32,694 nucleotides of DNA from a virus. Its lineage: Duplodnaviria; Heunggongvirae; Uroviricota; Caudoviricetes. Positions 7,326 to 27,519 of the stretch are shown here, in pieces; the first letter of the stretch is position 1; every line of letters starts with the position of its first letter. The notes under the pieces were generated by a model. The model was not told the DNA's origin and made no database searches. It saw only the letters and a program-made list of their open reading frames with translations. The DNA lies in IMG/VR virus record IMGVR_UViG_3300002756_000060, positions 1-32,694 of that record. One strand, given 5' to 3'. The position numbers and the translations under genes are program-made.

Positions 7326-7335
7326 CATTTTTCGT

Positions 7336-7419: not shown

Positions 7420-7505
7420 CCAACATCGCGGACCCTGATGCTGTCGCCGACCGGTGCGGTCGCGCTCTCGCGTCTGTCCGCGTCTCACCACAGCAGAGAG
7501 ACCCC

Positions 7506-10844: not shown

Positions 10845-10853
10845 CGCGCGGGA

Positions 10854-12058: not shown

Positions 12059-12717
12059 CGATACAAGGAAAGATCGGGCGGCCAGGCGGCCAAAAAACCA
12101 AACGCGCGCTGGGCGTGCAGGCGGCGCTGGAATGGGCCTTTGGCGTGGAAAAGGCACAGCTGGAACTGCCCCTACCGAAGGGCGTGGCCGAGGAAGGCTT
12201 CGGCTTTGGGCTCGAATACGTGCTGCTGCAACGCGCCATACTTGGCTGCAAGATCGACGGCGGCCAACACAAGTTGGGTGGCTATGTGCACGTGGACGCC
12301 GAGGTGATCGCCGCCACCGTCGCGGGCATGCCCGACACCTTGGGTGGTAAGCGCATGGCGATCCGGGTCGCGGAACTGGCACGCGCCGGGCTGACCCCGG
12401 ACTGGATGCCCAGGGCCGTGCCGCGCTGCGTGCCCGTCGATATCAAGCGCAACCGGCATGGTGATCGCGCGGTCAGCGTCGTGGTCGGCACCGCCCGCGC
12501 GCTGATCAGCGGCAAGTGGCGCATCGTCGAGGTCCGCGCCTGCCCCGTCACCTTCACCCCAACCCCACACCAGATCGACGCCGCCCGCCAAGCCTATGAC
12601 GACTGGTGGCAGGCACTGGACTGGGTACGGGATGGGCTTATCGCGGGCGACATGCTGCGGGAGATTGATGTGACAGGGGCGATGCCGAGCGTGCGGCCGT
12701 GGGCTGCAAAGCCTTGA
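12055..12717 (+). CDS. hypothetical protein (220 aa)
   Basis: Translationally coupled to the upstream gene; no recognisable motif. Confidence 0.5.
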   Translation: MTIQGKIGRPGGQKTKRALGVQAALEWAFGVEKAQLELPLPKGVAEEGFGFGLEYVLLQRAILGCKIDGGQHKLGGYVHVDAEVIAATVAGMPDTLGGKRMAIRVAELARAGLTPDWMPRAVPRCVPVDIKRNRHGDRAVSVVVGTARALISGKWRIVEVRACPVTFTPTPHQIDAARQAYDDWWQALDWVRDGLIAGDMLREIDVTGAMPSVRPWAAKP

Positions 12718-12778: not shown

Positions 12779-15652
12779 ATGTTCACCGCTTACCATGGCA
12801 AATATACCGCATATGATCTTACGAAGCTGGCGCCGCCCGGCTCGGACGATCAGTTGTCAATGTCGTTGTTCGATGCATCGGTTGATCTCAATCCTCATCA
12901 GATTGAGGCCGCGATGTTCGCGCTTCAATCGCCGCTGGCTGAAGGCGCGATACTTGCGGATGAGGTCGGCCTCGGCAAAACCATCGAGGCAGGCATTGTC
13001 CTTTGCCAGAAATGGGCTGAGCGAAAACGGAAACTAATCATCATCTGCCCAGCGGCCATTCGACAGCAGTGGGCTGCAGAACTGACGAACAAGTTCAATC
13101 TTCCCGCAGTCGTCATTGACGCTCGGACCTATCGACAGATGAAGATGGAAGGCATTCCATTCCCTTTGTCACAGAAGCGGATCGTCGTGCTATCCTATCA
13201 TTATGCTGCAAAGCTTCAGGATGAGCTTCGGCAAGTCGATTGGGATCTGGTTGTTATCGACGAAGCGCACAAGCTTCGTAACTCGTACCGACCCAGCAAT
13301 CGCATCGGGCAAGCTCTTCAACGAGCAGTCGAAGGCCGCAAAAAGCTCCTGCTGACGGCTACTCCCCTCCAAAACAGCTTGATGGAGATATTCGGGCTTA
13401 CGAACTTCATTGATCCAAACATTTTCGGCGATGCCAACAGCTTCCGGTCGAAGTATGTGAATGCCGGTGGCGATCTGCCCGAGCTTCGCGCAAGGCTCGC
13501 GGATTTCTGCAAGCGCACGCTTCGGAAGCAGGTTCTCGAGTATGTCAAATATACTCAGCGCCGTGCCATCACGCAGCCATTCTCGCCGGCGGAGAACGAG
13601 CAGGCGCTGTATGACGGCATTACGCGCTTCCTACAACGAGAGGACACCTATGCAATACCCTCTCAACAGCGCCATCTAACCGTTCTTATCCTGCGGAAGC
13701 TTCTCGCTTCGTCATCACAGGCCATCGCAGGGACGCTTGAGACCCTACGCGCCCGCTTGGTAGCCCTGCAGAAAGGGGAACCGGTAAAGGATGATCTGGC
13801 GGAGGTGATTTCATTCGAGAACGAGCTCGAAGAAGAAATTCTCGACGAATGGGATGATGACGATGCGCAAGACCCCACAGGGGCCGAGCAAATCGACTTC
13901 GCCAAGCTTCGCCTGGAAATCGACGATATTTCAGGTCTGATCCAGCTTGCACATTCGATCCAGATCGATACTAAGTCCAAAGCGCTGCTACAGGCTCTCG
14001 AGATAGGCTTTTCGGAGCAGGAGCGGATGGGCGCACAGAGAAAAGCCCTGATCTTCACAGAGTCGCGCCGCACCCAAGACTATCTCCGCGATTTCCTCGC
14101 GCGCTACGGTTACGCCAATCAAATTGTGACCTTCAGTGGCACTAATTCCGACCGCAAGGCACAGGAAATTTACGAGCGCTGGCTTACCGATCCGAAGAGC
14201 GCCGAGCAGATTACAGGATCGCGCGCCATCGATGTTCGTGCTGCACTGATAGAAGAATTCCGCGACAATGCCTCGATCATGATCGCAACCGAGGCCGCCG
14301 CCGAGGGTGTCAACCTGCAATTCTGCTCGCAGGTCATCAACTACGACCTTCCGTGGAACCCGCAGAGGATCGAACAGCGCATCGGACGCTGCCATCGCTA
14401 TGGGCAGACGCATGATGTGATCGTCGTGAACTTCCTGAACGAACGCAACGATGCAGATAAACGGGTTCACGCGCTTCTAACCGAGAAGTTCAATCTGTTC
14501 GATGGTGTATTTGGGGCTTCAGACGAGGTCTTGGGAACGATTGAGTCCGGCGTCGACTTCGAAAAGCGCATTCTGGCGATTTACCAGGACTGCCGCACTC
14601 CGGAGGCCATCGCCGCAGCTTTTGATGAACTTCAGACCCAGCTCGAGGAACAAATTCGGAGCCGAATGGAGGATACAAGGCGGGCCCTGCTGGAGAACTT
14701 CGACGAGGATGTCCACGCCCGCCTGAAGCTGCGCCTCGCTGACGCCCGCGAACAGTTGGACCGTGTCGGGCGCCGGTTTTGGGATCTGACCACTGCTATC
14801 CTCGCCGACAAGGCCAAATTCGATGAACCAAATCTGGCCTTCGACCTTCTGGCCCCGCCGACCCGCGACCTGCGACCGGGCCGCTATCACCTGATCTCGC
14901 GGAACTCGGCCGCAGACCCGGCCAAGAACGAACACGGCTATTTCCTCTACCGGCTGTCGCACCCTCTTGGCGAGCATGTCATTGAATCGGCCAAGGCCGC
15001 TGACACGCCAGTGGCCGAATTGCGGTTCGATGTGACCAATCACCCCACACGCGTGGCCATCGTCGAGGCGCTGAAAGGGCGGCGCGGCTGGCTGACGCTG
15101 CGCAAACTTGCGGTGACGACCTTCGAGACCGAGGAATACCTGCTATTCTCGGGCATCGACGACAATGGTCGCTCCATCGACCACGAAGCCTGCGCCAAGC
15201 TGTTCTCGGTCGGTGCTGGCGTTCACCCCATCGACATGCCCGCCCCTGCCATCGCCGACCTCCTTCAGGCTGAGGCCGAGCAGCATGCCAAAGCCACCTT
15301 GAACCGGTCGCTGGATGCCAACAACAAGCACTTTGCCTCGGCCCGTGAAAGGCTGGAGCGCTGGGCTGAGGACAAGGTCTACGCGGCAGAGAAGGCGCTG
15401 AAGGACACCAAGGAACAGATCAAGGGGGTGCGTCGCGAGGCGCGGGCAGCTACCACACTCGAAGAAGAAGCCGCCATCCAAGCCAAACTGCAGGAACTGG
15501 AACGTCGCCAGCGCAAGCAGCGGCAGGAAATCTTCAACCAGGAAGACGAAGTGGCCGACAAGCGGGACGAGTTGATCGCCAACCTTCAAAAGCGGCTCAG
15601 CCGTGGCCACTCGGTTGAATCGCTGTTTACGGTCCGCTGGGCCGTCGTGTAG
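12779..15652 (+). CDS. SNF2-family (SF2) helicase/ATPase
   Basis: Motif I LADEVGLGKTIEAG; motif II LVVIDEAHKLRN; motif III LLLTATPLQNSLMEIFGL; C-terminal helicase motifs ALIFTESRRT, IMIATEAAAEGVNLQ, DLPWNPQRIEQRIGRCHRYGQ; AT-richer codon usage than neighbours. Confidence 0.9.
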   Translation: MFTAYHGKYTAYDLTKLAPPGSDDQLSMSLFDASVDLNPHQIEAAMFALQSPLAEGAILADEVGLGKTIEAGIVLCQKWAERKRKLIIICPAAIRQQWAAELTNKFNLPAVVIDARTYRQMKMEGIPFPLSQKRIVVLSYHYAAKLQDELRQVDWDLVVIDEAHKLRNSYRPSNRIGQALQRAVEGRKKLLLTATPLQNSLMEIFGLTNFIDPNIFGDANSFRSKYVNAGGDLPELRARLADFCKRTLRKQVLEYVKYTQRRAITQPFSPAENEQALYDGITRFLQREDTYAIPSQQRHLTVLILRKLLASSSQAIAGTLETLRARLVALQKGEPVKDDLAEVISFENELEEEILDEWDDDDAQDPTGAEQIDFAKLRLEIDDISGLIQLAHSIQIDTKSKALLQALEIGFSEQERMGAQRKALIFTESRRTQDYLRDFLARYGYANQIVTFSGTNSDRKAQEIYERWLTDPKSAEQITGSRAIDVRAALIEEFRDNASIMIATEAAAEGVNLQFCSQVINYDLPWNPQRIEQRIGRCHRYGQTHDVIVVNFLNERNDADKRVHALLTEKFNLFDGVFGASDEVLGTIESGVDFEKRILAIYQDCRTPEAIAAAFDELQTQLEEQIRSRMEDTRRALLENFDEDVHARLKLRLADAREQLDRVGRRFWDLTTAILADKAKFDEPNLAFDLLAPPTRDLRPGRYHLISRNSAADPAKNEHGYFLYRLSHPLGEHVIESAKAADTPVAELRFDVTNHPTRVAIVEALKGRRGWLTLRKLAVTTFETEEYLLFSGIDDNGRSIDHEACAKLFSVGAGVHPIDMPAPAIADLLQAEAEQHAKATLNRSLDANNKHFASARERLERWAEDKVYAAEKALKDTKEQIKGVRREARAATTLEEEAAIQAKLQELERRQRKQRQEIFNQEDEVADKRDELIANLQKRLSRGHSVESLFTVRWAVV

Positions 15653-15685
15653 ACCAGCCGAGTAACATCAAGGAAAACAAGAACA

Positions 15686-18600
15686 ATGAGCAATTTTGAC
15701 GCCCTCGTTGCCAAGCTGCGCGAAATCTTCCAGATCGACCGGCCTGACCTCGATTTTGGCGTCTACCGTATCCTCAACGCCCGCGCGGGGGAAATCGAGG
15801 ATTACCTGTCCAAGCGTCTGAAGGCGCGGGTGGCCGAAGCACTGGCTGCCGGTGCTGCGGCCAATACCGAAACGCTGAAGGCCGCGATTGAGAAAGCGCG
15901 CGAAGCTGCTGAGGCCGCAGGGTACAATTCAGACGAAGCTCCGAGAGTTCTGAGCCTCCAGAAGGAACTTGCAGCCGCCAGCGGGGCCACGTCGGAGCAT
16001 GAAAATCAGGTCTTCTCGCACCTGTTGACCTTCTTCTCGCGCTACTACGACAAGGGCGATTTCATCAGCCAGCGCCGGTACAAGGGTGATACCTATGCCA
16101 TCCCCTATTCCGGGGAAGAGGTCGTGCTGCACTGGGCGAACCGCGATCAGTATTACATCAAAAGCGGAGAATCCTTCTCGAACTTCAGCTTCAAGCTGGA
16201 TGACGGTCGACTTGTGCATTTCCGCCTTGTCGCTGCCGATACGGCCAAAGACAACCGCAAGGATAACGACAAGGAGCGCCGCTTCGTTCTGGCCACCGAG
16301 CGCACGGTCACGCGCCTTGACGAGGAGGGCGAGGGTTTTGAAGAAACCATCCGTCCGATCGAGGAAGAGGATGGCGCGCTGGTCATCCGGTTCGACTTTG
16401 CAGCACAGCCCAAAGGGACCAAGCAAGAAAAACTGGTTGAGGCGGCGGTGGAAACCATTCTGGACAGCGAGACTTTCAAATCGAGATGGCTGGAACTGAC
16501 CAACCGCGCGCCGACGGAAAAGAAACCGCAGCGCACCTTGCTGGAAAAGCACCTGACGACCTACACGCAAAAGAACACCGCCGATTACTTCATTCACAAG
16601 GATCTGGATGGTTTTCTGCGGCGCGAACTGGATTTCTACATCAAGAACGAGGTGATGAACCTGGACGATGTGCAGGAGGCCGGGGCCTTTGCCGCCATCG
16701 AAAGAAACCTACGGATGATCCAATGCCTGCGGGCCATCGCTCTGGACCTGATTACCTTTCTGGCCAGCATCGAGAATCTCCAGAAAAAGCTATGGCTGAA
16801 AAAGAAATTCGTGGTGGCGGCGCAGTATTGCGTGACGCTGGACCGGGTGCCGGAGGCGCTTTACCCGGCTATCGCGGCGAACCCCGCGCAATGGGCGCAG
16901 TGGCATGATCTGGGGATGCGGGCATCCGCGGCGCCGGGGACGGTGGAGGATCTGAAAGCCGCGCCCTTCCTGATGGTGGACACCGCGCTCTTTGATGCGG
17001 GTTTCCGGGCTGACCTGTTGAAGGCGATCCCCGATCTGGATGCTAGCCTCGACGGGCTGCTGGTTCATGGGGACAATTTTCAGGCGCTGAACCTTTTGCA
17101 GGATCGATACCGGGAAAAGGTCAAATCAATCTATATCGACCCGCCTTACAACACTGACGCAGGACCGATCAGTTACAAGAACGGCTACCGGAGTTCGTCG
17201 TGGGTTGCCATGATGCACGACCGCGTGAAACTCGGGCGTGAGCTATTGCCTCTCGACGGGTTGCTCACCGCCACGATCGATGACTATCAGTACCGTGAAT
17301 TGCACTTCGCCATTGAAGAGGTTTTTGGCGCTCAAAACCTCGCAGGTACCGTTGTAATCCGAATGAACCCGTCTGGCCGCCCGCTCCCACAAGGCTTCGC
17401 ACAGTCCCACGAATACGCAATCGTCGCGAAGCGGTCAGACTTAGCTCAGATCGAGAACTTACCGAGAAGCGAGAAGCAGAACGCCAGATATAAGCACCGC
17501 GATGACGACGGTCAGATGTACATGTGGGAACTGTTCAGAAAGCGCGGATCGAATTCCGAAAGAACTGACCGGCCTTCGCTGTATTATCCGATCTATCTCC
17601 GGGGTGAGGACTTTCGGGTTCCCCGAATGACTTATGATCCTGATCGCAAGGATTGGGATATTCATGAAGAACCGGATACCGACGAAAGCGTCATCTACCC
17701 TATTGACGACAACGGAACCTTGCGCACGTGGCGTGGCTCACCGGATGATTTGATCGATAATCCAAGCAACTATCGTGTGAAGATCGAGGACAGCAAAGTC
17801 ACGGTCTACTACAAGTTTCGCCCCAACTCTGAGGGTGTGCTTCCGCTCACCAACTGGATCGATGCCAAATACTCCGCAACGGAGCATGGAACGGGATATC
17901 TCAAGAACTTCTTTTCGGAATACAACGTTTTCTCCTATCCGAAGTCGATCTACGCGGTTGAAGACTGCATCAGGGTTGGTGGCGCAACGGCCAATGCAAC
18001 CGTCCTCGACTATTTTGCAGGATCGGGCACGACTGGACACGCAGTCATAAACTTGAACCGGTCCGACCAAGGGTCTCGAAAGTACATCTTGGCCGAGCAA
18101 GGCGCTTACTTCGAAACTGTCATTAAGCCACGCTTAAAGAAGGCAGTGTTTTCTGCTGATTGGTCAGAGGGTAAACCCACCGCCCCCGAAACCGGCATCA
18201 GCCATGCCTTCAAGGTACTCAAGATCGAGGGCTATGAGGACACGCTGAACAATCTTGATCTGAAGCGTTCGGAGGCGCAGGCCAGTCTTCTGGAACGGTT
18301 CAGCGCCGACAAGCGCGACGACTATTTGATGCGCTACATGCTGGATGTCGAGGGACGCGGCTCGCTCCTGTCCATCTCGGATTTCCGCAAGCCCTTTGAC
18401 TACTCGCTCAAGGTCGCCGTCGACAGCGCCGGGGCCTGGGAGGAGCGCAAGGTCGATCTGGTCGAGACCTTCAACTACCTGATCGGCCTGACCGTCCGCC
18501 ATATCGACATCCAGCTTCGCCAAGGCTTCGCCACGGTCGAGGGCTGGTTGCCAACGGGTGAGCGGACCCTGATCCTGTGGCGCGACTGCGATAAAATCGG

Positions 18601-18805
18601 CTATGAGGAATTGACGCGCCTGTGCGACAAACTGGCGATTAACCCGGCCGACAGCGAATACGACGTGGTCTACATCAACGGCGACCACAATATCCCCTCG
18701 GTGGTGGAAACGACCGAGGAAGAGGGCAGCGTTATCAAGAAGCTGATGCTGCGCCAGATCGAACCCGCCTTCCTCGATGCGATGTTCAACGTGGATGACG
18801 TCTGA
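15686..18805 (+). CDS. Type III Mod-like beta-class DNA methyltransferase with ~480-aa N-terminal extension
   Basis: LLVHGDNFQALNLLQDRYREKVKSIYIDPPYNT (motif IV) precedes VLDYFAGSGTTGHAV (motif I); AAGGAAA Shine-Dalgarno at 15670-15676; 1039 aa. Confidence 0.85.
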   Translation: MSNFDALVAKLREIFQIDRPDLDFGVYRILNARAGEIEDYLSKRLKARVAEALAAGAAANTETLKAAIEKAREAAEAAGYNSDEAPRVLSLQKELAAASGATSEHENQVFSHLLTFFSRYYDKGDFISQRRYKGDTYAIPYSGEEVVLHWANRDQYYIKSGESFSNFSFKLDDGRLVHFRLVAADTAKDNRKDNDKERRFVLATERTVTRLDEEGEGFEETIRPIEEEDGALVIRFDFAAQPKGTKQEKLVEAAVETILDSETFKSRWLELTNRAPTEKKPQRTLLEKHLTTYTQKNTADYFIHKDLDGFLRRELDFYIKNEVMNLDDVQEAGAFAAIERNLRMIQCLRAIALDLITFLASIENLQKKLWLKKKFVVAAQYCVTLDRVPEALYPAIAANPAQWAQWHDLGMRASAAPGTVEDLKAAPFLMVDTALFDAGFRADLLKAIPDLDASLDGLLVHGDNFQALNLLQDRYREKVKSIYIDPPYNTDAGPISYKNGYRSSSWVAMMHDRVKLGRELLPLDGLLTATIDDYQYRELHFAIEEVFGAQNLAGTVVIRMNPSGRPLPQGFAQSHEYAIVAKRSDLAQIENLPRSEKQNARYKHRDDDGQMYMWELFRKRGSNSERTDRPSLYYPIYLRGEDFRVPRMTYDPDRKDWDIHEEPDTDESVIYPIDDNGTLRTWRGSPDDLIDNPSNYRVKIEDSKVTVYYKFRPNSEGVLPLTNWIDAKYSATEHGTGYLKNFFSEYNVFSYPKSIYAVEDCIRVGGATANATVLDYFAGSGTTGHAVINLNRSDQGSRKYILAEQGAYFETVIKPRLKKAVFSADWSEGKPTAPETGISHAFKVLKIEGYEDTLNNLDLKRSEAQASLLERFSADKRDDYLMRYMLDVEGRGSLLSISDFRKPFDYSLKVAVDSAGAWEERKVDLVETFNYLIGLTVRHIDIQLRQGFATVEGWLPTGERTLILWRDCDKIGYEELTRLCDKLAINPADSEYDVVYINGDHNIPSVVETTEEEGSVIKKLMLRQIEPAFLDAMFNVDDV

Positions 18806-21800
18806 TGGCGCGTGCGGCGAAGAAAAAGCGCACCTTCCATCACGAGTTGGTGCTGAACCGCTGGATGCTGAGCCATTTTTACGGTGACGGCCTGATGACG
18901 CTCAAATCGCGGTTGGGCGATGACCGGTTTGAGGGTATCGACGACGATGGCCAGACCAAGTTCTTTCATGAGCTGACGCGCAACCTGTTCAACATGGACC
19001 GCGTCACCGAGGCCGAGCTGCGCCGCTATGACCTGAACATCGTCGCATATTGGCAGAAGATCACCCATCGCCGCAACGCCGCCACGGGCGAATTGCTGAC
19101 GATGAAATATTTTCAGTATCTGTCGCTGCTGTTCACCGAGATCTACCTCGACTGGTATTTCAACCGGCGACAGGACTTGCTGGACGGGCTGAATGCCCAA
19201 ATGGCCGCGTATCGGAAAGAGGACGGGGCCGAACCGTTTCGCGATTATAGCGCCGACGACCTCAACAAGCTCGCCTTCTGGAACGCGACAGGCAGCGGCA
19301 AGACCCTGCTGCTGCATGTGAACATCCTGCAGTACCTGCATTACTTCCAGGCGGGCAACGGCAACCTATTTCCCGACCGGATCATCCTGCTGACCCCAAA
19401 CGAGGGACTGTCACGCCAGCATCTGGAGGAATTCCGCGAGTCCGGCATCAACGCCCATGTCTTCGACAAGAACCAGACAGGTTCGCTGTTCAAGGGCTGG
19501 GTGGATGTGATCGAAGTCACGAAGCTGGCCGACGAGATGGGCGACAAGACCGTCGCCACCGGCGCGTTCGAGGGCAACAACCTGGTGCTGGTCGACGAAG
19601 GCCACCGCGGCACCGGCAGTGCGGGCGGGGTCTGGATGGCGAGGCGCGCGGCGCTGGTGAAGGGCGGCTTTGCTTTTGAATACAGCGCGACCTTCAGCCA
19701 ATCAGTCGCCAAGGGCGCCACGGTTGCAAAGGCCGAGGAAGACATCCTGAAGGCCAAGGCGAAGCGCCTGTTCGACAAGACTTTGAAACAGCTGGACGAC
19801 ACGGAACGCGCACAACTGCAGCTGACCAACGAAGATCGCGCCCGCGCCCGCATCGACGGCATTCGCGAGGCCTACGCCAAGGCGGTGCTGATCGACTACA
19901 GCTACAAGTATTTCTACGCCGACGGTTACGGGAAGGAATCCCTGATCCTGAACCTGGACGACAAGGGCTATGACAACCATGGCGATCTGTATTTCACAGC
20001 GTGCTTGCTCAGCTTCTACCAGCAGCTCTGGCTCTGGGACACGCACCGCGACAAGATCAGGGACTTCAATATCGAGAAGCCGTTGTGGGTCTTCGTGGGC
20101 AACACTGTGGCCGGAGAGGACAGCGATATCCTCGAAGTCATCAAGTTCCTCGCCTGGTTTCTGAACCATCCCAGCGAAGCCACGACATGGATCGCAGACC
20201 TCGTTGCCGACAAGGCGCGGCTGCTGGACCCGAAGGGTAACGACGTATTCGCGGGGCGCTTCTCCCCCTTGATGCAGCGTGATGCCGCGACGATCTATGA
20301 CGATATCCTGAAGCGGCTGTTTAACGCCGATGCGAGGCAGCGGCTGAAGTTGGTGAACCTGAAGAACAGCAAGGGTGAGCTGGCCCTGCGGGTCGGATCG
20401 TTCGATCCCTTTGGCCTGATCAACATCGGCGACGATTCCGGCTTCTTCAAGAACGCCGAGGACAGCAGCGACTTCGATACCGAAGCGGACGATTTCGGGA
20501 CCGGGCTGTTTGGCACGATCAACCAGAAAGATAGCAAGCTGAATGTCCTGATCGGGTCGCGGAAATTCACCGAAGGCTGGTCAAGCTGGCGGGTGTCGAC
20601 CATGGGTCTACTCAACATGGGGCAAGGCGAAGGCTCACAGATCATTCAGCTTTTCGGTCGCGGCGTCCGCCTGAAAGGACGCGGCATGTCGCTGAAACGG
20701 TCACTCCCCGCCGAGCGGCCGAAGGGCACGCACATGGAACGCCTTGAAACGCTGAACATCTTCGGCGTCCGGGCGAACTACATGGCCACCTTCAAGGACT
20801 ACCTGAAGGAGGAAGGCATCACGCCGAGCGACGAAATCATTCAGCTCGACTTCCCGACCAGGACGAACCTGCCGTCCGGGACTAGGCTCAAGACGCTCAA
20901 GCTGAAAGATGGCTATAAGGATAATCAGATCAAGGGCTTCAAGCGCGTCCACTATCCGACGTTATACGAGGTCCCGGCCGAGTTCGCGGGCAAGATCAAG
21001 CCTCCACACGTCCTGCTCGACCTTTATCCGCGAGTCGAAGCGATCACGACCACGGCGAACGCAACGGCGGGCGCACCGGACAAGCGAAATCGTGGCAAAC
21101 TGAGCAAGGCGGCAATCGCCTGCTTTGATTGGGATGCGGTATTCACCGCCGTTCAGGAATACAAGCTCCTGAAAAGCTGGAGCAACCTGAAGGTCGACCG
21201 AGAGCGCCTATACCAGTTCTGTCTTGGCGACAACAGCTGGTACACCCTTTTGATCCCCCAAGCGGAACTGGAAGTGTCGGACTTTTCAGATGTGCTGCGT
21301 CAGCAGGACATCATGCTTCAGCTGCTTACCGACTATACCGACCGTTTCTATCAAGGGCTGAAGGCGGCTTATGAGGGCAAATTCTACGATGTCGCGCCGG
21401 TTACGGAGGACTCCGGCTCGATCATCAAACTGTACCAGTTTGAGATCGAAAACACCGATGTCGGTCTTGAGTACAAGGCAAAGCTTGAGGTCCTTTCCGC
21501 CCTCGTCGCGTCTGGAAAAATCGGCGAGGCCAGCAATTGGAACGCACCCCATATGGTGGCGATCAGCTTCGGACAGCACCTGTATTATCCCCTGCTCTCT
21601 CCGATCAAAGATGCGGTCGTCCCACTAAAGATGCGACCACTGGCAATTGGAGAACCAAGCGAGGTGCAGTTCGTTGAGGACGTCATGGCCTACTACGACT
21701 CGCCTTCAGGGAAAGAGAGGCTGAAAGGCTTCAGCCTTTACCTGCTGCGCAATGCCGACAATCGCGCCAAGGGGCTCGGTTTCGCTCTGGCAGGCAACTT

Positions 21801-22122
21801 CTATCCTGACTTCCTGCTCTGGCTGGTGGACGACAAAACTGGCAAGCAGTGGCTATCATTCATCGATCCTAAGGGCATTCGAAACCTGAACATTTCGGAC
21901 CCGAAGTTTGGCTTGTATAGGGAAATCAAGCAGATCGAGAACCAGCTGGGTGACGGCATGATCAGCCTAAACGCCTTCATCCTGTCCGTGACGACCTTCA
22001 GCGACCTGCTAAATGTCACAGGCTCTACCACGAAATCGGAGCTCGAGGACCGAAATGTCCTATTCATGGGCGACGGGGGGCCGACATATCTTGATAAGCT
22101 GCTGGCCAGAGCCCTCACCTGA
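18805..22122 (+). CDS. Res-like ATPase/helicase with candidate C-terminal PD-(D/E)xK nuclease
   Basis: Walker A FWNATGSGKTLLLHV; Walker B-type LVLVDEGHRG; C-terminal YPDFLLWL...FIDPKG; start overlaps the Mod-like stop (TGATG), so co-operonic; 1105 aa. Confidence 0.75.
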   Translation: MARAAKKKRTFHHELVLNRWMLSHFYGDGLMTLKSRLGDDRFEGIDDDGQTKFFHELTRNLFNMDRVTEAELRRYDLNIVAYWQKITHRRNAATGELLTMKYFQYLSLLFTEIYLDWYFNRRQDLLDGLNAQMAAYRKEDGAEPFRDYSADDLNKLAFWNATGSGKTLLLHVNILQYLHYFQAGNGNLFPDRIILLTPNEGLSRQHLEEFRESGINAHVFDKNQTGSLFKGWVDVIEVTKLADEMGDKTVATGAFEGNNLVLVDEGHRGTGSAGGVWMARRAALVKGGFAFEYSATFSQSVAKGATVAKAEEDILKAKAKRLFDKTLKQLDDTERAQLQLTNEDRARARIDGIREAYAKAVLIDYSYKYFYADGYGKESLILNLDDKGYDNHGDLYFTACLLSFYQQLWLWDTHRDKIRDFNIEKPLWVFVGNTVAGEDSDILEVIKFLAWFLNHPSEATTWIADLVADKARLLDPKGNDVFAGRFSPLMQRDAATIYDDILKRLFNADARQRLKLVNLKNSKGELALRVGSFDPFGLINIGDDSGFFKNAEDSSDFDTEADDFGTGLFGTINQKDSKLNVLIGSRKFTEGWSSWRVSTMGLLNMGQGEGSQIIQLFGRGVRLKGRGMSLKRSLPAERPKGTHMERLETLNIFGVRANYMATFKDYLKEEGITPSDEIIQLDFPTRTNLPSGTRLKTLKLKDGYKDNQIKGFKRVHYPTLYEVPAEFAGKIKPPHVLLDLYPRVEAITTTANATAGAPDKRNRGKLSKAAIACFDWDAVFTAVQEYKLLKSWSNLKVDRERLYQFCLGDNSWYTLLIPQAELEVSDFSDVLRQQDIMLQLLTDYTDRFYQGLKAAYEGKFYDVAPVTEDSGSIIKLYQFEIENTDVGLEYKAKLEVLSALVASGKIGEASNWNAPHMVAISFGQHLYYPLLSPIKDAVVPLKMRPLAIGEPSEVQFVEDVMAYYDSPSGKERLKGFSLYLLRNADNRAKGLGFALAGNFYPDFLLWLVDDKTGKQWLSFIDPKGIRNLNISDPKFGLYREIKQIENQLGDGMISLNAFILSVTTFSDLLNVTGSTTKSELEDRNVLFMGDGGPTYLDKLLARALT

Positions 22123-22150: not shown

Positions 22151-22225
22151 ATGGTTCCTCCCGGGCGCGATCCGTATACGGGGGGGCTGAGCGCGGCATT
22201 TCGCTAGCGACTGGCTTTTTCACCG

Positions 22226-22427
22226 GGGAATCCACTTGGAAGCCACCCCGGCGGCCCTGCCGGAAATTGTGACTCAATTTCAGAACCTTACCCGACAGCA
22301 TCGGTGGCCAGGGTGGATTCCTTTTGGAAGCCAGGGAATCCACTTGGTGGGTTCTTTTGGCCAGAAAAGCCACCCTCAGGCCAGATCGGCAGAACACCTT
22401 GATTCCAAGCCACAAAATGGATTGACA
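22226..22427. repeat. Array of GGAA(T/G)CCA motifs in both orientations (paralog of 7137-7325)
   Basis: gggaatccacttggaagccacc occurs twice; ggtggccagggtggattcc (inverted); gattccaagccac. Confidence 0.6.
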
Positions 22428-22510
22428 TTTCTAGCCCCCTTGACGTACCCCTTGATTGTCGAAGAGTTGCGCCCGGAGGAAACCCCTCGCGGGCGCTTTT
22501 GCTTTCCCCC
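22422..22510 (+). promoter_or_regulatory. Promoter-like TTGACA/TTGACG/TTGATT elements followed by a GC stem (GCGCCCG 22469-22475 / CGGGCGC 22490-22496) and T-rich tract
   Basis: Same arrangement as 7336-7419; the conserved leader CATCGCGGACCCTGA follows in both copies. Confidence 0.4.
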
Positions 22511-22592
22511 ATCGCGGACCCTGACACAGCAACCGGCGTTTGCCGGGGCTTGCATTGGTCTGTCCGCCCTGCCCCGGATCCGAACCCCACCC

Positions 22593-23855
22593 ATGGACCT
22601 TGTCTTTGCGCCGAGCCAGATCGAGAGCTGGCCGATCGACCGGCTGCGCCCCTATGCCCGCAATGCCAAGATCCACGGCACGGACCAAGTCGCCAAGATC
22701 GCGGCAAGCATGGCCAAGTTCGGCTGGACCGTGCCTTGCTTGGTGGCTGACGATGGCGATCTGATTGCGGGCCACGGTCGGGTGCTGGCCGCCATCATGC
22801 TGGGGCTGACCGAGGTGCCGGTGATCCGGCTCGGCCACCTGGATGAAGCGGAGCGCCGGGCGTACCGGATCGCGGACAACAAATTGACCGAGTTGGGCGA
22901 ATGGGACGAGGCAATGCTGCGCGACGAGATCGCGGGGCTGCTGGCCGAGGATTTCGACCTTACGCTGCTGGGCATCAGCGAGGATGATCTCGATGCGCTG
23001 TTGCGGGATCCCGATGCGCTGGGCGGCGATGGCCCCGTCGAGGGCGAGGACGACGTTCCGGAGTTACCGGTCACCCCGGTCTCGGTGGCGGGTGACCTTT
23101 GGCAGCTTGGATCGCACCGGCTGATCTGCGGCGACAGCACCTCCGCCGATGTCGTCGGGCGGCTGCTCGGCGACGTGAAGCCGTTGCTGATGGTGACGGA
23201 CCCGCCTTACGGCGTGGAGTATGACCCAAGCTGGCGCAACCAGGCGGGCGCGGCCAAAACCAAACGAACCGGCAAGGTGCTGAACGACGACCGGGCCGAC
23301 TGGCGCGAGGCATGGGCGCTGTTCCCCGGCGATGTCGCCTATGTCTGGCACGGCGCGCTGCATGCAGCGACGGTTGCTGAAAGCCTCTTGGTTGCAGGTT
23401 TTGCCATTCGCTCGCAGATTATCTGGGCCAAGGACCGGCTGGTCCTCAGCCGCGGCGATTACCACTGGCAGCATGAGCCCTGCTGGTATGCGGTGCGCGT
23501 CAAGGGCAAGGGGCACTGGGCGGGCGACCGCAAGCAGACCACATTGTGGCAGATCGCCAACCGCGATCAAGATGCCGACACAGTGCACGGCACGCAAAAG
23601 CCGGTCGAATGCATGCGCCGTCCGATCCTGAACAATTCCAGCCCCGGGCAGGCGGTGTTTGAACCCTTTATGGGGTCTGGCACCACGCTGATCGCGGCTG
23701 AAACCACGGGACGCGTCTGCTTTGGGATCGAGTTGAACCCGGCCTACGTTGATGTGGCCATCGAGCGCTGGCAGCAATTCACCGGCGCCAATGCCGTGCT
23801 GGCGGAAACGGGCGAGACCTTCGCCGAGTTGAAGGCCAAAAGGCTGGCCGCATGA
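22593..23855 (+). CDS. ParB-like nuclease domain fused to DNA methyltransferase (DPPY type), paralog of 7506-8768
   Basis: MDLVFAPSQIESWPIDRLRPYARNAK...; LMVTDPPYG; FEPFMGSGTTLIAAE; 8 differences from the first copy in the first 62 residues. Confidence 0.85.
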   Translation: MDLVFAPSQIESWPIDRLRPYARNAKIHGTDQVAKIAASMAKFGWTVPCLVADDGDLIAGHGRVLAAIMLGLTEVPVIRLGHLDEAERRAYRIADNKLTELGEWDEAMLRDEIAGLLAEDFDLTLLGISEDDLDALLRDPDALGGDGPVEGEDDVPELPVTPVSVAGDLWQLGSHRLICGDSTSADVVGRLLGDVKPLLMVTDPPYGVEYDPSWRNQAGAAKTKRTGKVLNDDRADWREAWALFPGDVAYVWHGALHAATVAESLLVAGFAIRSQIIWAKDRLVLSRGDYHWQHEPCWYAVRVKGKGHWAGDRKQTTLWQIANRDQDADTVHGTQKPVECMRRPILNNSSPGQAVFEPFMGSGTTLIAAETTGRVCFGIELNPAYVDVAIERWQQFTGANAVLAETGETFAELKAKRLAA

Positions 23856-25219
23856 ACGCGCCCCTCCTGCCGGGCCGGATCGAACATTGGCCGCTGGCCC
23901 GGCTGAAGCCCTATGCCCGCAACGCCAAGACCCATGACGCCGATCAGGTTGTGAAGATCGCTGCCAGCATGGCCGAGTTTGGCTGGACCGTCCCCTGCCT
24001 CGTCGCCGCCGATGGTGAGTTGATCGCAGGCCATGGCCGCATCCTGGCGGCGGCCCAGCTGGGGCTGTCCGAGGCCCCGGTCATCGTGCTGGACCATCTG
24101 ACCGAGGCGCAACGCCGGGCCTATCGCATCGCCGACAACAAGCTCACCGAGCTGGGCGGCTGGGACGAGGCCCTGCTCCTCGAGGAGCTGCGCGGGCTGT
24201 TGGCCGAGGATTTCGACCTCGGGCTGATCGGGATCCCCGAGGATGAGCTGGACGCGCTGCTGCACGCGGGCGACGAAGAGCGCCCATCGATTTCTGACGA
24301 TGCGGCTGATGCCATCCCCGCCCCGCCTGCCGAACCCATCACTAAGGCGGGCGACATCTGGGCGCTGGGCAAGCACCGGCTATGCTGCGGCGACGCGACC
24401 GATCCGGCCGCTGTCGCCAGGTTGATGCAGGGTGCAGAAGCCGCGCTGATGTTCACCTCGCCACCCTATGCCCAGCAGCGCGACTATGGCGCGGCCAGGG
24501 AAAAACTCGGCGATTGGGATGCGCTGATGCAGGGCGTGTTCACTGCAGCGCCGGTCACCACCGACGCACAGCTGCTGGTCAACCTCGGCCTCGTGCACCG
24601 GGACAGCGAATGGCAACCCTATTGGGAAGGATGGGTCGAATGGATGCGCAAATCTGGCTGGCGACGCTTTGGCTGGTATGTGTGGGATCAGGGCCCGGGC
24701 TTGCCGGGCGACTGGAACGGCCGCCTGGCCCCGTCGCACGAGTTCATTTTCCACTTCAACCGCGCGCCCCGCAAACCGCACAAGACGGTCCAGTCAAAGC
24801 ACGCGGGCGAAACTTTGGGCGGCGGCGGGCTGCGCGGGGCCGACGGCACCGTGCATGCCAAAACCGGCACAGGCAACGCGATCCAGAGCCACCGCATCCC
24901 GGACTCTGTCTTCCGCATCATGCGCCACAAGGGCGGGCTGGGTGCGGCCGGATCGCATCCGGCGGTGTTCCCCGTGGCGCTGGTCGAGGCCGTGCTGACC
25001 GCATTCTCGGATCCGGGCGACCTGATCTACGAGCCGTTCTGCGGCTCCGGCACCCAGATCGTCGCCGCCGAACGCGCTGAGCGGCGCTGCTTCGCGATGG
25101 AACTGGATCCCGTCTATTGCGACGTCGCCGTGCGGCGATGGGAACTGGCGACGGGGCGAAAGGCACAGTTGGAAAATCGCAACGAAACCACCATTGGCAA
25201 GGAGACAAAACAGCAATGA
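23852..25219 (+). CDS. ParB-like nuclease domain fused to DNA methyltransferase (SPPY type), paralog of 8765-10132
   Basis: KPYARNAKTHDADQVVKIAASMAEFGW; LMFTSPPYAQQRDYG; YEPFCGSGTQIVAAE; ATGA overlap with the upstream gene. Confidence 0.85.
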   Translation: MNAPLLPGRIEHWPLARLKPYARNAKTHDADQVVKIAASMAEFGWTVPCLVAADGELIAGHGRILAAAQLGLSEAPVIVLDHLTEAQRRAYRIADNKLTELGGWDEALLLEELRGLLAEDFDLGLIGIPEDELDALLHAGDEERPSISDDAADAIPAPPAEPITKAGDIWALGKHRLCCGDATDPAAVARLMQGAEAALMFTSPPYAQQRDYGAAREKLGDWDALMQGVFTAAPVTTDAQLLVNLGLVHRDSEWQPYWEGWVEWMRKSGWRRFGWYVWDQGPGLPGDWNGRLAPSHEFIFHFNRAPRKPHKTVQSKHAGETLGGGGLRGADGTVHAKTGTGNAIQSHRIPDSVFRIMRHKGGLGAAGSHPAVFPVALVEAVLTAFSDPGDLIYEPFCGSGTQIVAAERAERRCFAMELDPVYCDVAVRRWELATGRKAQLENRNETTIGKETKQQ

Positions 25220-25725
25220 TCATCAACACCCCAATCTGGCGAAACGCTGACCTCATTCGGATCATTCCGATCACGCGCGCGGACCTGAACCAGGCCATAT
25301 CCCGCAACGACTTTCAGCCTGAAAACACACCCAAGCCCGGAAAGGCGCGCTGGTACAGCTGGAGAGACGTAGTGTCGGTTGCTGCCGCACAGGACTTGCG
25401 CAAACTCGGCTTTGGTCCGTCGATCGCATTTGGGCTGGTGCAAAACCACCTGTCACCGTTTCTGCGGGCTAGCATAGACGCCCCGGACGATTGCGCAGGA
25501 GTGCTTTGGCTTATCCGTCCAAGTGACGACCATCTCAACATTGAGACCCCGTGCGAGTTCCTGCGGCACACCGAATACGAGGAACTCCTTGTTACGCCAG
25601 ACGAGAGCGCTTGCATCATCGTGAATATCGGTCGCATTGCAGCCCGCGTTAGCAATGACCTGCAGGCGACCGAGACTGCCAAGATCATCCGTGAGGAATT
25701 TCAGATCACAGGACCGGTGATGTGA
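25216..25725 (+). CDS. hypothetical protein (169 aa), paralog of 10129-10638
   Basis: Near-identical sequence (MIINTPIWRNADLIRIIPITRADLNQAISRNDF...). Confidence 0.6.
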   Translation: MIINTPIWRNADLIRIIPITRADLNQAISRNDFQPENTPKPGKARWYSWRDVVSVAAAQDLRKLGFGPSIAFGLVQNHLSPFLRASIDAPDDCAGVLWLIRPSDDHLNIETPCEFLRHTEYEELLVTPDESACIIVNIGRIAARVSNDLQATETAKIIREEFQITGPVM

Positions 25726-25937
25726 CCCAATCGCGCGGCATGTCGCTGATCGAAGCCGTCACCAACGTGGCGGTGGGCTATGTGCTCGCTGTCGCCACGC
25801 AGATCTTGGTGTTTCCATGGTTCGGCCTGCACCCGAGCCTTGGCGAGAACCTAGCGCTGGGCGGGGTCTTCATCGGCATATCGCTCCTGCGCAGCTACGC
25901 GCTGCGCAGGCTGTTCGAGCGCTGGACGCACTTGTGA
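25722..25937 (+). CDS. small hydrophobic (probable membrane) protein, paralog of 10635-10844
   Basis: MTQSRGMSLIEAVTNVAVGYVLAVATQILVFPWFGLHPSLGENLALGGVFIGISLL. Confidence 0.5.
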   Translation: MTQSRGMSLIEAVTNVAVGYVLAVATQILVFPWFGLHPSLGENLALGGVFIGISLLRSYALRRLFERWTHL

Positions 25938-25989
25938 TGCCAGTTCCTGATAAAAAATGCAGCTGAGAGAAGCGCCGAATTTTTGGCGC

Positions 25990-26010
25990 ATTCCTGCGAT
26001 ACCAGGAATG
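25990..26010. promoter_or_regulatory. Perfect 8-bp inverted repeat CATTCCTG-cgata-CAGGAATG just upstream of the NYN gene (candidate operator)
   Basis: Palindrome read directly at 25990-25997 and 26003-26010; it lies 16-25 nt upstream of the candidate starts. Confidence 0.35.
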
Positions 26011-26025
26011 GAAATCCAGTAGACG

Positions 26026-26712
26026 GTGAGCGATATGACCCAGCCAGTGGCAGTGCTTGTGGATGGCGACAATATCAGCGGCAAGAACGCCGCATCCATC
26101 CTTGGGATCGCCATGAAGCACGGCGATCCCGTTGTGGTGCGGGCCTATCTGGACGCTCAGCGGGCATCCGACTGGCACGGTGCCATCGGGTATCGGCTGG
26201 TCCATGCCGGGTCAGGCAAGAACGCATCGGATATCCTGCTGGCCATTGATGCAATGGACCTTGTTCACGCCAAGACGACCACGAAATTCATCATTGCCAC
26301 CTCTGACGGTGATTTCACTCATCTCGCAGTCCGCCTGCGCGAACTTGGTGCAAAGGTCATAGGCGTCGGAGAAGCGAAAGCACCACATATGTTCAGGGCA
26401 AGTTGCTCCAGCTTTGTGGAACTGGGCACGAAACCGACAGTGAAACTGGTGCCCAAGGCGCCGACAGGCGTCGCGGATATGGACTTGAAAATCCGAGCGA
26501 TGATTGCCGAACACAGCAAGAAGGGGGCCGGCATGCGCATCGTCGAGCTCGCCCCGAAAATGCATGTGGTGCATGGGATCAAGATCAGTACACTGCCGGA
26601 AAAGAACTGGCGAAGCTATCTGACCGCGCGCCCAGCTTTGTTCGATGTTGAGCCGCGCGGCCCCGAAGCAATGGTCAGGTTTCGACCAGAGGGGTTTGCG
26701 ACGGCGGCCTGA
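26026..26712 (+). CDS. NYN (PIN-like) domain protein with possible C-terminal OST-HTH/LOTUS-like domain
   Basis: N-terminus VAVLVDGDNISGKNAASILGIA...FIIATSDGDFTHLAVRLRELGAKVIGVG fits the NYN pattern; start GTG 26026 or ATG 26035. Confidence 0.65.
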   Translation: MSDMTQPVAVLVDGDNISGKNAASILGIAMKHGDPVVVRAYLDAQRASDWHGAIGYRLVHAGSGKNASDILLAIDAMDLVHAKTTTKFIIATSDGDFTHLAVRLRELGAKVIGVGEAKAPHMFRASCSSFVELGTKPTVKLVPKAPTGVADMDLKIRAMIAEHSKKGAGMRIVELAPKMHVVHGIKISTLPEKNWRSYLTARPALFDVEPRGPEAMVRFRPEGFATAA

Positions 26713-26937
26713 CAGGGAAGCTGTGATCGGACCCGTCTCAACCGTCCAGAAGATTGAGTGCCGTGATATAGGGATCGGCGATGTTCCATGACCCTTCTTC
26801 AAGGGTTCAGATCGCATCGCTGTTGGCGGACAAGGCCGCGAAGGCTGCGGATACCGCCGCCTCCGCATTCGACGCCTGAACCGTGACGCTTGTGCTTTCC
26901 GTCACATCGCGGGTGAGCAGGACCGCGAAGCAGGGCA

Positions 26938-27519
26938 TCAGGCGGCCTCGAGTTTGTACACGGTGCCTCTGCCCGCGACCTTCTCCGAGGTAACCGGCAG
27001 GTTCAGCTTCTTCTTGAGGCCGCCCGAAATCAGGCCTCTCGCCGAATGCGCCAACCATCCCGTCGCTTCGACGATCTCGGCGATGGATGCACCCTCGGGT
27101 CGCTGAATGAGTGCGATGATCTCCGCCTGTTTGGTGCCGGTGCGGATGGCAACCGGCTTCGGCGTGGAAGGGTTCGGGGAAGCTTCGGACGCATCCTTGG
27201 GCCCAGTGACCAGCTCCAGCTTTGCCTTGCGCGCGCTGGCGACGGCGCTGGCCACCACCGGCTCGATCCCGATGGCTTGCAGCCCGGCCTCAGTCGCGAT
27301 CAGCGTGGTGCCGTGGCCGTCGCCGGTTTCGCGCCACATGGGCTCGCCTCGGCGCAGGTTGGCCTCGACCTCTTCAAGCCAGCCGCGCGTGATCATCGCG
27401 GTCACCGCCTTCTGGGCGGCGGCGCCATGCAGGCCCTCGGGCAGTGGCATAGCGAGGTTGCCGGGGCGCGTTGCCGCGCGGCTGAGGACGATGGTTTGGG
27501 TGTCGGTGAGTTTGGGCAT
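26938..27519 (-). CDS. DUF3489-like protein (full-length copy, 193 aa)
   Basis: Paralog of 10854-11309 with ~42 extra N-terminal residues. Confidence 0.6.
   Translation of the reverse strand: MPKLTDTQTIVLSRAATRPGNLAMPLPEGLHGAAAQKAVTAMITRGWLEEVEANLRRGEPMWRETGDGHGTTLIATEAGLQAIGIEPVVASAVASARKAKLELVTGPKDASEASPNPSTPKPVAIRTGTKQAEIIALIQRPEGASIAEIVEATGWLAHSARGLISGGLKKKLNLPVTSEKVAGRGTVYKLEAA

Follow-up and report, generated by a model that had tools for sequence, protein, structure and literature searches.

Bacterial proteins that combine an LK-nuclease domain with an OST-HTH domain represent the typical bacterial form of this nuclease family and have been predicted to function as stand-alone enzymes of RNA degradation (Anantharaman, Zhang & Aravind 2010, PMC2848206; PMC5499597). 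Surveys published in 2010 and 2017 list an experimentally assigned function for none of these bacterial proteins (PMC2848206, PMC5499597). Among eukaryotes, MARF1 of mouse and human (PDB 5yaa, 6fdl, 5yad) is a large protein of the germline that contains RRMs along with several LOTUS repeats, and the cleavage of ssRNA depends on its LOTUS domains (PMC6217404). The same Pfam family as that of the protein described here also includes VPA0982 of Vibrio parahaemolyticus (2qip), which differs from our protein in being NYN-only and 165 aa long, and cyanobacterial LabA, which is known on genetic grounds only, through its part in KaiC feedback.

Our analysis concerns a gene in a stretch of 32,694 nt from a tailed-phage record of IMG/VR, hereafter the window. 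The gene, termed here NYN-LOTUS, occupies positions 26035-26712 of the + strand (an ORF of 678 nt, 225 aa plus stop); the ORF call allowed a start at 26026 or 26035, and the ATG at 26035 was fixed from the alignment of homologues. It is a real gene, and its product is an ordinary member of a known bacterial family of predicted RNA-cutting enzymes, whose architecture was described in 2010, rather than a new class. With the bacterial LK-nuclease (DUF88, now PF01936, COG1432 LabA-like) and OST-HTH proteins (PMC2848206; NYN.COG1432 group of Matelska et al. 2017, PMC5499597) it shares the two-domain architecture and the acidic residues, as well as the stand-alone character of the gene, the lack of a conserved neighbourhood and the sporadic distribution. 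Unlike other such proteins, it has a tail that is too diverged for the Pfam OST-HTH model, and its subfamily is confined to Rhodobacterales, partly phage-borne and equipped with its own conserved upstream element. MARF1 is the best structural match of its N-terminal part (TM 0.70) and also matches the tail (TM 0.70), with a four-Asp pocket, Asn and Ser at equivalent positions (PMC6217404), whereas the identity is 16-17% and the window protein consists of just one NYN and one LOTUS-like domain.

The NYN domain and the C-terminal winged helix

The NYN (LabA-like, LK-nuclease) domain spans aa 5-130 (positions 26047-26424, + strand) and was delimited with Pfam, a PDB profile search, Foldseek and the homologue alignment. 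The Pfam NYN model PF01936 matched with E=2.5e-25 (90.1 bits against a cutoff of 24.2), covering model positions 2-144 of 145, and was present in 120 of 120 homologues among the matches listed. In the PDB sequence-profile search, VPA0982 was the only significant match (2qip, E=2.6e-4), and its alignment includes the SxDxDF motif. The AF2 model (pLDDT 87) has a PIN-like alpha/beta/alpha fold resembling solved NYN domains, and Foldseek paired it with the NYN domain of MARF1 (6fdl/5yaa, E=4e-6 to 2e-5, TM 0.69-0.71, rmsd about 3 Å). The Pfam match and these structural resemblances bear out the NYN (PIN-like) fold that a preliminary description of the locus had claimed.

The acidic set of the domain comprises D10, D40, D66 and D91, accompanied by N13 and T/S89. 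Little or no variation is seen in the motif D10-x-x-N13, which closes beta1, in D66, with which helix 64-78 begins, or in (S/T)89-x-D91-x-D93, which follows beta4; the residue closing beta2, D40, is Asp in most homologues and Asn in a few. In the alignment of 23 homologues (58-90% identity) D10, N13, D66, S90, D91 and D93 are invariant and position 89 is occupied by S or T. When compared by position with the description in PMC6217404, the acidic positions are equivalent to the catalytic positions D178/D215/D246/D272 of MARF1. The four acidic residues, the Asn and the Ser that characterize the NYN/LK-nuclease family were thus all found, both in the 23-homologue alignment and in the AF2 model. 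With its full acidic set, the N-terminal domain is probably a metal-dependent endonuclease domain, an activity predicted from residue conservation and the modelled fold.

In the AF2 model, the NYN domain is followed by a linker at residues 133-143 (pLDDT <50) and by a winged helix at aa 148-222 (positions 26476-26700, + strand; pLDDT 82), so that the winged helix lies C-terminal to NYN, as PMC2848206 describes for bacteria. The best PDB matches of the tail are LOTUS domains, namely those of Tejas (8wxs, TM 0.74, rmsd 2.1 Å), TDRD5 (3s93), TDRD7 (2lh9/3rco) and MARF1 (5yad, TM 0.70), with target-normalised TM of 0.61-0.74, rmsd of 2.0-2.8 Å and weak E values from 7e-3 to 0.5. Further structure matches included the bacterial OST-HTH structure 2kpm as well as winged-helix DNA-binding proteins of a generic kind, namely repressors of the MarR, ArsR and SmtB types. 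At the level of profiles, neither the full window protein nor its tail was matched by Pfam OST-HTH (PF12872) at E<=10, one of the 23 homologue tails was (E=0.0018), and the tail alignment, run as a profile against the PDB, returned noise only, with LOTUS not found. The possible OST-HTH tail of the preliminary description is therefore upheld as a LOTUS-type fold in the structure model, but not as a Pfam assignment. Judged by its modelled structure, the tail is a winged helix of the LOTUS/OST-HTH type.

As in MARF1, such a winged helix would recruit the RNA substrate. The combination of a nuclease domain carrying the full acidic set with an RNA-recruiting tail makes it most likely that the product is a stand-alone endoribonuclease, and we predict that it would act as such in the cell.

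A cargo slot at the junction of two phage operons

Phage morons and prophage cargo hotspots, for instance the variable defence-gene slots of P2/P4-like elements, offer a known parallel to the site described here. The window contains two modules, A and B, which are collinear through the stop codon of a DUF7220 gene. The slot that follows measures 9 nt in module A (10845-10853, between the DUF7220 and DUF3489 stop codons) and 1000 nt in module B (25938-26937), the repeat offset changing from 15087 before the slot to about 16085-16099 after it. On the left, the slot of module B is bordered by the DUF7220 gene (25722-25937, + strand; Pfam E=4.3e-33; phrog_4276), the last gene of a rightward ParB-methyltransferase operon. 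The right border is formed by the DUF3489 gene (26938-27519, - strand; Pfam E=3.9e-25; phrog_10315 E=1.4e-56), the last large gene of a leftward operon. The two genes are convergent, and the slot represents the junction of two operons.

The earlier claim of about 1 kb in copy B that is missing from copy A holds for the length, but the insert is not one gene. It contains the NYN cassette and, as a second and independent cargo unit, a short ORF on the minus strand (26738-26938). This small ORF is coupled to the DUF3489 stop, is homologous to a phage ORF of 66 aa and is interrupted by an in-frame TGA where Trp codon 44 is conserved. The small ORF is found without the NYN gene in one related locus (L108), and the NYN gene without the small ORF in four (L010, L098, L104, L147). 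Since each occurs without the other and the ORF is interrupted here, it was rejected as a partner or antitoxin of the NYN protein.

Terminase genes, for TerS (phrog_57) and a TerL of the gpA type, follow 3 kb downstream of the NYN gene. The window is 100% identical to the IMG/VR contig UViG_3300002490_000102, and eight IMG/VR contigs, like genomes of Roseinatronobacter, Roseovarius and Yoonia, have the NYN gene at this slot. Roseinatronobacter bogoriensis DSM 18756 (L010) shows this arrangement of the slot. Among 70 related IMG/VR contigs, the slot was empty in 34 and occupied in 36, four of the latter carrying the NYN gene; a fifth contig with the gene (L121) ends before the core gene and stands outside these four. 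Elsewhere in related contigs, the DUF7220-DUF3489 slot holds HNH, HNH_3, GNAT, RiboL-PSP-HEPN, DUF4160 and LysR genes. The local GC content of 0.59 is lower than that of the module core (0.65-0.68). In INPHARED, which covers cultured phages, only matches to the NYN domain alone were obtained, at <41% identity, and a full-length DUF3489 homologue was not found.

The absence from module A, the nearby terminase genes and the IMG/VR contigs with the same slot confirm the earlier view of an accessory gene within a phage. Presence or absence at a fixed junction of collinear phage genomes, together with alternative cargo, identifies the site as a moron or cargo slot. It resembles known morons and hotspots in that one gene is present or absent between collinear genomes, at an operon junction, with lower GC and alternating cargo; it departs from them in that canonical promoter and terminator flanks were not found in the window, and from the P2/P4-like defence slots in that its cargo includes non-defence genes (GNAT, LysR). 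We read the NYN gene as a self-contained one-gene cassette of about 0.77 kb, made up of an upstream element, a Shine-Dalgarno sequence and the 678-nt ORF, which resides in a moron/cargo slot where two operons converge in a temperate phage of Rhodobacterales. That the 225-aa product belongs to the stereotyped bacterial family of LK-nuclease (Pfam NYN/LabA-like) and OST-HTH/LOTUS proteins, and that its gene shows this cassette and slot behaviour, we regard as highly likely.

The upstream region: palindrome and conserved element

A perfect 8-bp inverted repeat before the gene had been put forward as its own operator. The repeat exists as CATTCCTG-cgatac-CAGGAATG (25989-26010), with arms at 25989-25996 and 26003-26010; the spacer, however, is 6 nt long (cgatac) and not 5. 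The last nucleotides of the conserved 19-nt element considered below fall within the left arm. Perfect 8-bp inverted repeats with spacers of 3-10 nt gave 14 hits (9 distinct sites) across the window, most of them within coding sequence, against 7.1 +/- 3.5 in Markov-simulated windows; such repeats are not enriched, and their count is within expectation. The probability of at least one such repeat per 97-nt stretch is 0.012. Among 83 distinct upstream regions of homologues, the palindrome was present in one, namely that of the window, and the longest inverted repeats of the remaining 82 measured 2-6 bp, the same distribution as in random 40-mers. An operator at the palindrome was rejected on these window-wide statistics and on its absence from the 82 other regions. 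RNAalifold predicted 0 conserved pairs at the palindrome or the 19-nt element, and the upstream region had no Rfam match at E<=1, so that an RNA hairpin at either place was likewise rejected. Being unique to the window sequence, statistically unremarkable and not conserved, the palindrome is very probably a fortuitous, lineage-specific feature, and the notion of an operator of this kind was not sustained.

This result bears directly on the proposal that the NYN protein is a toxin, or an effector of abortive infection or superinfection exclusion, silenced by a palindrome-bound repressor until infection or induction lifts the repression. Such a switch would agree with the overlap that the palindrome would have with a -10-like GATACC, with the nuclease fold and its intact acidic residues, and with a phage cargo slot that holds HNH and HEPN genes elsewhere; the absence of the palindrome from all 82 other upstream regions speaks against it.

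Conservation in front of the gene was found instead in a gene-specific element, GCCGAATTTTTGGCGCATT (25975-25993, + strand), with partial dyad symmetry (GCCGAA-TT-TTCGGC), recognised from homologous upstream regions. The element occurs in 46 of 95 loci, at 42-45 nt from the ATG in most and within a range of 35-55 nt, and many homologues whose proteins are 60-70% identical and whose contexts are unrelated have kept it with <=3 substitutions. When the 19-nt pattern was sought in 1.8 Mb of fetched loci, 35 of its 38 matches lay upstream of NYN genes. Closer to the start codon, a Shine-Dalgarno-like GGTGAG (26025-26030, + strand) ends 4 nt before the ATG, and GGTGA or GGAG is kept there among homologues.

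Comparison of the element by eye with the consensus sequences of sigma-54, CtrA, LexA, EcfG and PrrA gave no consistent fit across homologues. No sigma-70 consensus promoter or intrinsic terminator was detected around the NYN gene in the window, nor in two homologous loci with better-looking hexamers; at one locus (L093), TTGACA and TATACT lie 19 nt apart, the scan range being 16-18. The 19-nt element may be a non-canonical promoter or operator. As neither sigma-70 consensus nor terminator was found, it is the conserved upstream element from which we infer independent transcription: the NYN gene would have a gene-specific control region that drives its transcription separately from the adjacent phage operons.

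The partial dyad of the element and the resemblance of the tail to MarR, ArsR and SmtB winged-helix repressors also raise the question of whether the protein is mainly a DNA-binding regulator, in which the winged helix binds the 19-nt dyad, regulating either its own gene or genes of the phage, and in which the NYN domain serves as a sensor or dimerisation module. The genetic involvement of cyanobacterial LabA in a transcriptional feedback (PMC5499597) would be in line with this. Yet in structure the tail comes closest to LOTUS domains, which bind RNA, the invariant catalytic-type residues argue for an active enzyme, and the near-exclusive location of the 19-nt pattern upstream of NYN genes would leave room for autoregulation at most. 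We consider a primarily regulatory protein very improbable.

Distribution among Rhodobacterales and possible role

Homologues were found in at least 185 Rhodobacterales species genomes; the subfamily is restricted to this order and partly phage-borne. Close homologues (80-90% identity) adjoin a type I HsdR gene or sit between IS elements, whereas more distant ones occur in Abi_C/AbiEi/IS islands, in integrase/ParB islands and at plain chromosomal sites. The non-phage loci include a position between aconitase and MipA/YajC/SecDF and another among sugar-metabolism genes on chromosome 2 of Cereibacter. Clustering of the flanking ORFs of >80 loci revealed no neighbour shared beyond close relatives and no co-conserved adjacent antitoxin or immunity gene, the called neighbours differing in each context examined.

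A broadly conserved housekeeping gene outside phages would have contradicted the preliminary description. Relatives are indeed widespread and many of them are not in phages, but they are patchily distributed and often close to mobile elements or defence islands. This patchiness and the frequent link to mobile elements and defence islands make the gene look accessory rather than housekeeping. The same evidence weighs on the explanation that the protein is a host-type Rhodobacterales enzyme of RNA turnover or processing, carried by the phage as a passenger with no phage-specific or conflict function. The number of species genomes with relatives, the full-length conservation under strong purifying selection, the control element that travels with the gene across contexts, the ordinary chromosomal neighbourhoods of some loci and the roles in tRNA/rRNA processing proposed for some NYN genes (PMC5499597) all agree with a passenger. 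Against it stand the patchy distribution without synteny, the recurrent IS, integrase, restriction-modification or Abi neighbours, and the recurrence of the gene at the same slot within a whole clade of phages at 74-100% identity, which suggests retention by the phages rather than a one-off acquisition. On balance, a mere passenger appears rather unlikely.

Some of these neighbourhoods also return to the toxin or exclusion effector, as homologues adjoin Abi_C/AbiEi, HsdR or an Xre_MbcA_ParS_C antitoxin-like gene in some islands. However, the loci share no adjacent gene for a cognate antitoxin, immunity protein or repressor, and in several genomes the gene is an orphan between core genes, which is hard to square with an unrestrained toxin. 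Furthermore, PADLOC-DB v2 contained 0 families matching the NYN protein at E<=0.01, and nine other cargo proteins of the slot were scanned with PADLOC with no match. The absence of a match among the PADLOC models also counts against this effector, which we judge highly unlikely. In a broader scenario, the protein would be an RNase for phage defence or exclusion that has so far escaped recognition, encoded by a single gene, driven in the prophage by the family-specific 19-nt element and perhaps autoregulated by its winged helix, with the DUF7220-DUF3489 junction as a defence-cargo hotspot of a large family of uncultured Rhodobacterales phages; we regard this as speculative and distinctly unlikely.

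The reading that we prefer, taken as one whole statement, is that of a stand-alone RNase cassette in a cargo slot, with its own control region and a fortuitous palindrome, and we assign it a probability of roughly 0.6. As to its benefit, the association with mobile elements and defence genes at some loci hints at selective RNA degradation that would help the element carrying the gene in its conflicts with competing mobile elements, a role that we hold weakly and only as a tentative possibility; the lack of a PADLOC match and the ordinary chromosomal neighbourhoods of several loci speak against it.

Significance

As things stand, the NYN-LOTUS gene is an ordinary accessory gene, and the palindromic operator that drew attention to it fails. 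Its architecture is common to the bacterial LK-nuclease and OST-HTH proteins and to the eukaryotic RNase MARF1. Modules A and B of a single window, together with the many related phages whose slot is empty, provide a natural on/off comparison for a NYN-LOTUS gene. Such on/off pairs, the small size of the gene, the conserved control element and the defined host group make this locus a convenient entry point to the function of the enzyme.

Gene model and the insert in copy B

A single long plus-strand reading frame (26026/26035-26712) lies within positions 25990-26712, and alignment with 22 homologues set the start of the gene at the ATG at 26035 (MTQPVAVLVDGDN...), preceded by GGTGAG at 26025-30, giving a product of 225 aa. 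The accessory NYN gene proposed in the preliminary description was borne out by Pfam, whose NYN family (PF01936) matches aa 5-130 with E=2.5e-25. The gene lies in the second of two copies of a module, copy A (about 7064-11300) and copy B (about 22152-27400), which carry on the plus strand two ParB-N6/N4 methyltransferase genes, an ORF and DUF7220, followed by DUF3489 on the minus strand. The alignment of the two copies extends to the DUF7220 stop codon, and the gap between the DUF7220 and DUF3489 stops measures 9 nt in A versus 1000 nt (25938-26937) in B, so copy B does have about 1 kb that copy A lacks, as stated earlier.

Four parts make up the insert: 97 nt upstream of the NYN gene, the gene itself, a 25-nt spacer and, on the minus strand, a small ORF (26738-26938) that is coupled to the stop codon of DUF3489. 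This ORF shares 72% identity with a 66-aa ORF of related phages and has an in-frame TGA in place of the conserved Trp codon 44; it is therefore a pseudogene or the result of a sequencing error. The small ORF occurs without the NYN gene at one homologous locus (L108) and the NYN gene without the small ORF at others (L010, L098, L104 and L147), which marks the small ORF as a cargo unit of the DUF7220/DUF3489 junction in its own right.

The DUF3489 gene of module A (about 10854-11309, minus strand) lacks its N-terminal ~37 residues, and the similarity between the modules ends at about 11300, where ORFs and a restriction-modification cluster start, so that a second related phage appears to have left module A behind, either as a truncated remnant or as a product of recombination. 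A 62-nt repeat holding tandem TTGAC-type motifs (TTGACA...CCCCCTTGAC...CTTGAT) is conserved at the start of both modules (7336-7397 and 22422-22483) and may serve the ParB-methyltransferase operon as promoter or operator.

Domain architecture of the product

The AlphaFold2 model built from 23 homologues (mean pLDDT 87) comprises an alpha/beta domain (aa 4-129), a disordered linker (aa 133-143) and a small helical/beta domain (aa 148-224). The N-terminal domain resembles the MARF1 NYN crystal structures 6fdl and 5yaa (E=4e-6 to 2e-5, TM 0.69-0.71), and the sole significant sequence-profile match in the PDB, with the SxDxDF motif aligned, was VPA0982 (2qip), the founding LK-nuclease/LabA-like structure. 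Among homologues at 58-90% identity D10, N13, D66, S90, D91 and D93 are invariant, while position 40 is D, occasionally N. In the model the catalytic-type residues are found at the ends of beta1 and beta2, where helix 3 begins and after beta4, and the four catalytic aspartates, the Asn and the Ser of MARF1 occupy the same positions (PMC6217404).

The possible OST-HTH tail fared differently by method. Pfam left the tail unrecognised even at E<=10, and an OST-HTH match was obtained in only 1 of 23 homologue tails (E=0.0018), whereas the tail modelled alone (pLDDT 82) found its best PDB matches, at weak E-values, in LOTUS/OST-HTH domains: Tejas (8wxs; TM 0.74, rmsd 2.1 A), TDRD5 (3s93), TDRD7 (2lh9/3rco), MARF1 (5yad; TM 0.70) and the bacterial OST-HTH domain 2kpm. 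Generic winged-helix repressors ranked lower. Because LOTUS/OST-HTH domains are the best structural matches, a predicted architecture of NYN followed by a LOTUS-like winged helix is accepted, on structural grounds and not on sequence profiles. This order is the stereotyped bacterial form described by Anantharaman, Zhang and Aravind in 2010 as sporadic, devoid of conserved neighbourhoods and, by prediction, a stand-alone enzyme of RNA degradation (PMC2848206); the protein family has thus been known since that year, and as of 2017 no member had been studied functionally according to Matelska et al. (PMC5499597).

Upstream region

The inverted repeat in front of the gene, proposed earlier as its operator, exists as two perfect 8-bp arms (25989-96, CATTCCTG; 26003-10, CAGGAATG), separated by a spacer of 6 nt (cgatac) that had been mis-transcribed. 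Perfect 8-bp inverted repeats with spacers of 3-10 nt gave 14 hits at 9 sites in the window, a frequency similar to that of simulated sequence (7.1 +/- 3.5), and longer ones are present in nearby coding sequence. The palindrome was found in just one of 83 distinct homologue upstream regions, that of the window itself; the repeats of the remainder measure 2-6 bp, a length also seen in random sequence. Its right arm is already changed in relatives at 85-90% identity. RNAalifold gave zero conserved pairs from the 19-nt element described below to the ATG. With frequency, conservation and RNA pairing all negative, the operator was rejected, and the palindrome is very probably a chance feature.

A 19-nt element (GCCGAATTTTTGGCGCATT, 25975-25993), whose final five bases form the beginning of the left arm, is conserved upstream of NYN-LOTUS genes. 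In most of the 46 loci with the element, 42-45 nt separate it from the ATG downstream. It recurs with <=3 substitutions in many homologues at 60-70% identity where the rest of the upstream DNA is unrelated, and is still recognisable in more distant homologues as GTCAAATTTTCGCC. Across the 1.8 Mb of loci that were retrieved, a degenerate pattern of it gave 38 matches; 35 of these, and probably a 36th, are upstream of NYN genes. The element shows partial dyad symmetry, is followed after ~6 nt by a weakly conserved (G/T)ATA-type hexamer, and matched neither the sigma-70 consensus nor any Rfam family. As judged from its sequence conservation and position, it may represent a non-canonical promoter or operator of the NYN gene's own, from which the gene would be expressed.

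Phage setting and the cargo slot

The window is identical (100%) to IMG/VR contig UViG_3300002490_000102. Genes for a small terminase (phrog_57) and a gpA-type large terminase are found 3 kb to the right of the NYN gene, and DUF7220, DUF3489 and several neighbours were assigned to PHROG families; the gene therefore resides in a phage or prophage, as had been described. The order ParB-MTase(s), DUF7220, NYN, DUF3489 (opposite strand) and, further on, TerS-TerL recurs in eight IMG/VR contigs and in metagenome contigs, as well as in Roseinatronobacter bogoriensis, Roseovarius, Yoonia and other genomes whose proteins share 74-90% identity with that of the window. Neither the NYN-LOTUS protein nor DUF3489 has a full-length homologue among the cultured phages of INPHARED, and the carrier lineage has no cultured representatives there.

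A defence-type cluster (12779-22122), preceded by two ORFs (11312-12717), lies between the modules and includes a DrmD-like SNF2 helicase (PADLOC DrmD, E=2e-203) and type III restriction-modification Mod (1039 aa) and Res (1105 aa). The left end of the window (829-6840) encodes a full-length HsdR (type I restriction R subunit), a HARE-HTH protein and a CHAT-domain protein; neither hsdM nor hsdS was seen in the scanned part of the window.

A DUF3489 relative was found in no fewer than 552 IMG/VR stretches, and 70 of the 80 best contigs permitted a measurement of the junction. It was empty, with stops <=100 nt apart as in copy A, in 34 of the 70 and occupied by an insert of 190-2000 nt in 36, the cargo being NYN in four, the window's own contig included; a fifth contig (L121) has NYN in the same position and ends short of the core gene. 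Other cargo comprised HNH and HNH_3 endonucleases, a GNAT acetyltransferase, a RiboL-PSP-HEPN protein, DUF4160 and a LysR regulator, and several cargo proteins of 160-420 aa had no Pfam or PADLOC match. Local GC is lower than in the module core (0.59 vs 0.65-0.68). The point where the DUF7220 and DUF3489 operons converge is a cargo ('moron') slot, at which the NYN gene is present or absent like a cassette, and a hotspot of a large phage family known solely from prophages and metagenomes.

Homologues outside phages and putative role

With one genome scanned per species, at least 185 stretches were found to encode relatives of the NYN protein; of the 80 loci listed, nearly all belong to Rhodobacterales/Paracoccaceae genomes or bins. 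Homologues at <=70% identity were never inside the phage module. The surroundings of homologues include an Abi_C/DUF3800/IS/AbiEi island (Pseudooceanicola), a type I HsdR gene (Roseinatronobacter thiooxidans), IS elements on both sides (a Paracoccaceae bin), an integrase/transposase/ParB island (Roseovarius), a ParB/RadC/H-NS/UvrD region (Pseudogemmobacter) and IS110 (Rhodovulum), together with ordinary chromosomal neighbourhoods in Cereibacter (chromosome 2, sugar genes), Leisingera (LysR/acyl-CoA genes), Falsihalocynthiibacter and Pararhodobacter (between aconitase and MipA/YajC/SecDF). Clustering of the flanking ORFs revealed no conserved neighbour; given these varied contexts, the NYN gene behaves as an orphan and as a mobile unit of one gene.

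The product was put forward as a putative toxin or exclusion factor; a toxin in the classical sense is argued against by the failure to find an antitoxin-like partner in the contexts examined, by the lack of a matching PADLOC model and by stable orphan copies among core genes. The protein is predicted to be a metal-dependent endoribonuclease. MARF1 requires its LOTUS domains for cleavage (PMC6217404), and by analogy the LOTUS-like tail may recruit the RNA substrate. Recurrence in a phage slot filled elsewhere by HNH and HEPN genes, along with frequent mobile or defence-island neighbours, hints circumstantially at a role of the NYN protein in conflicts between mobile elements.
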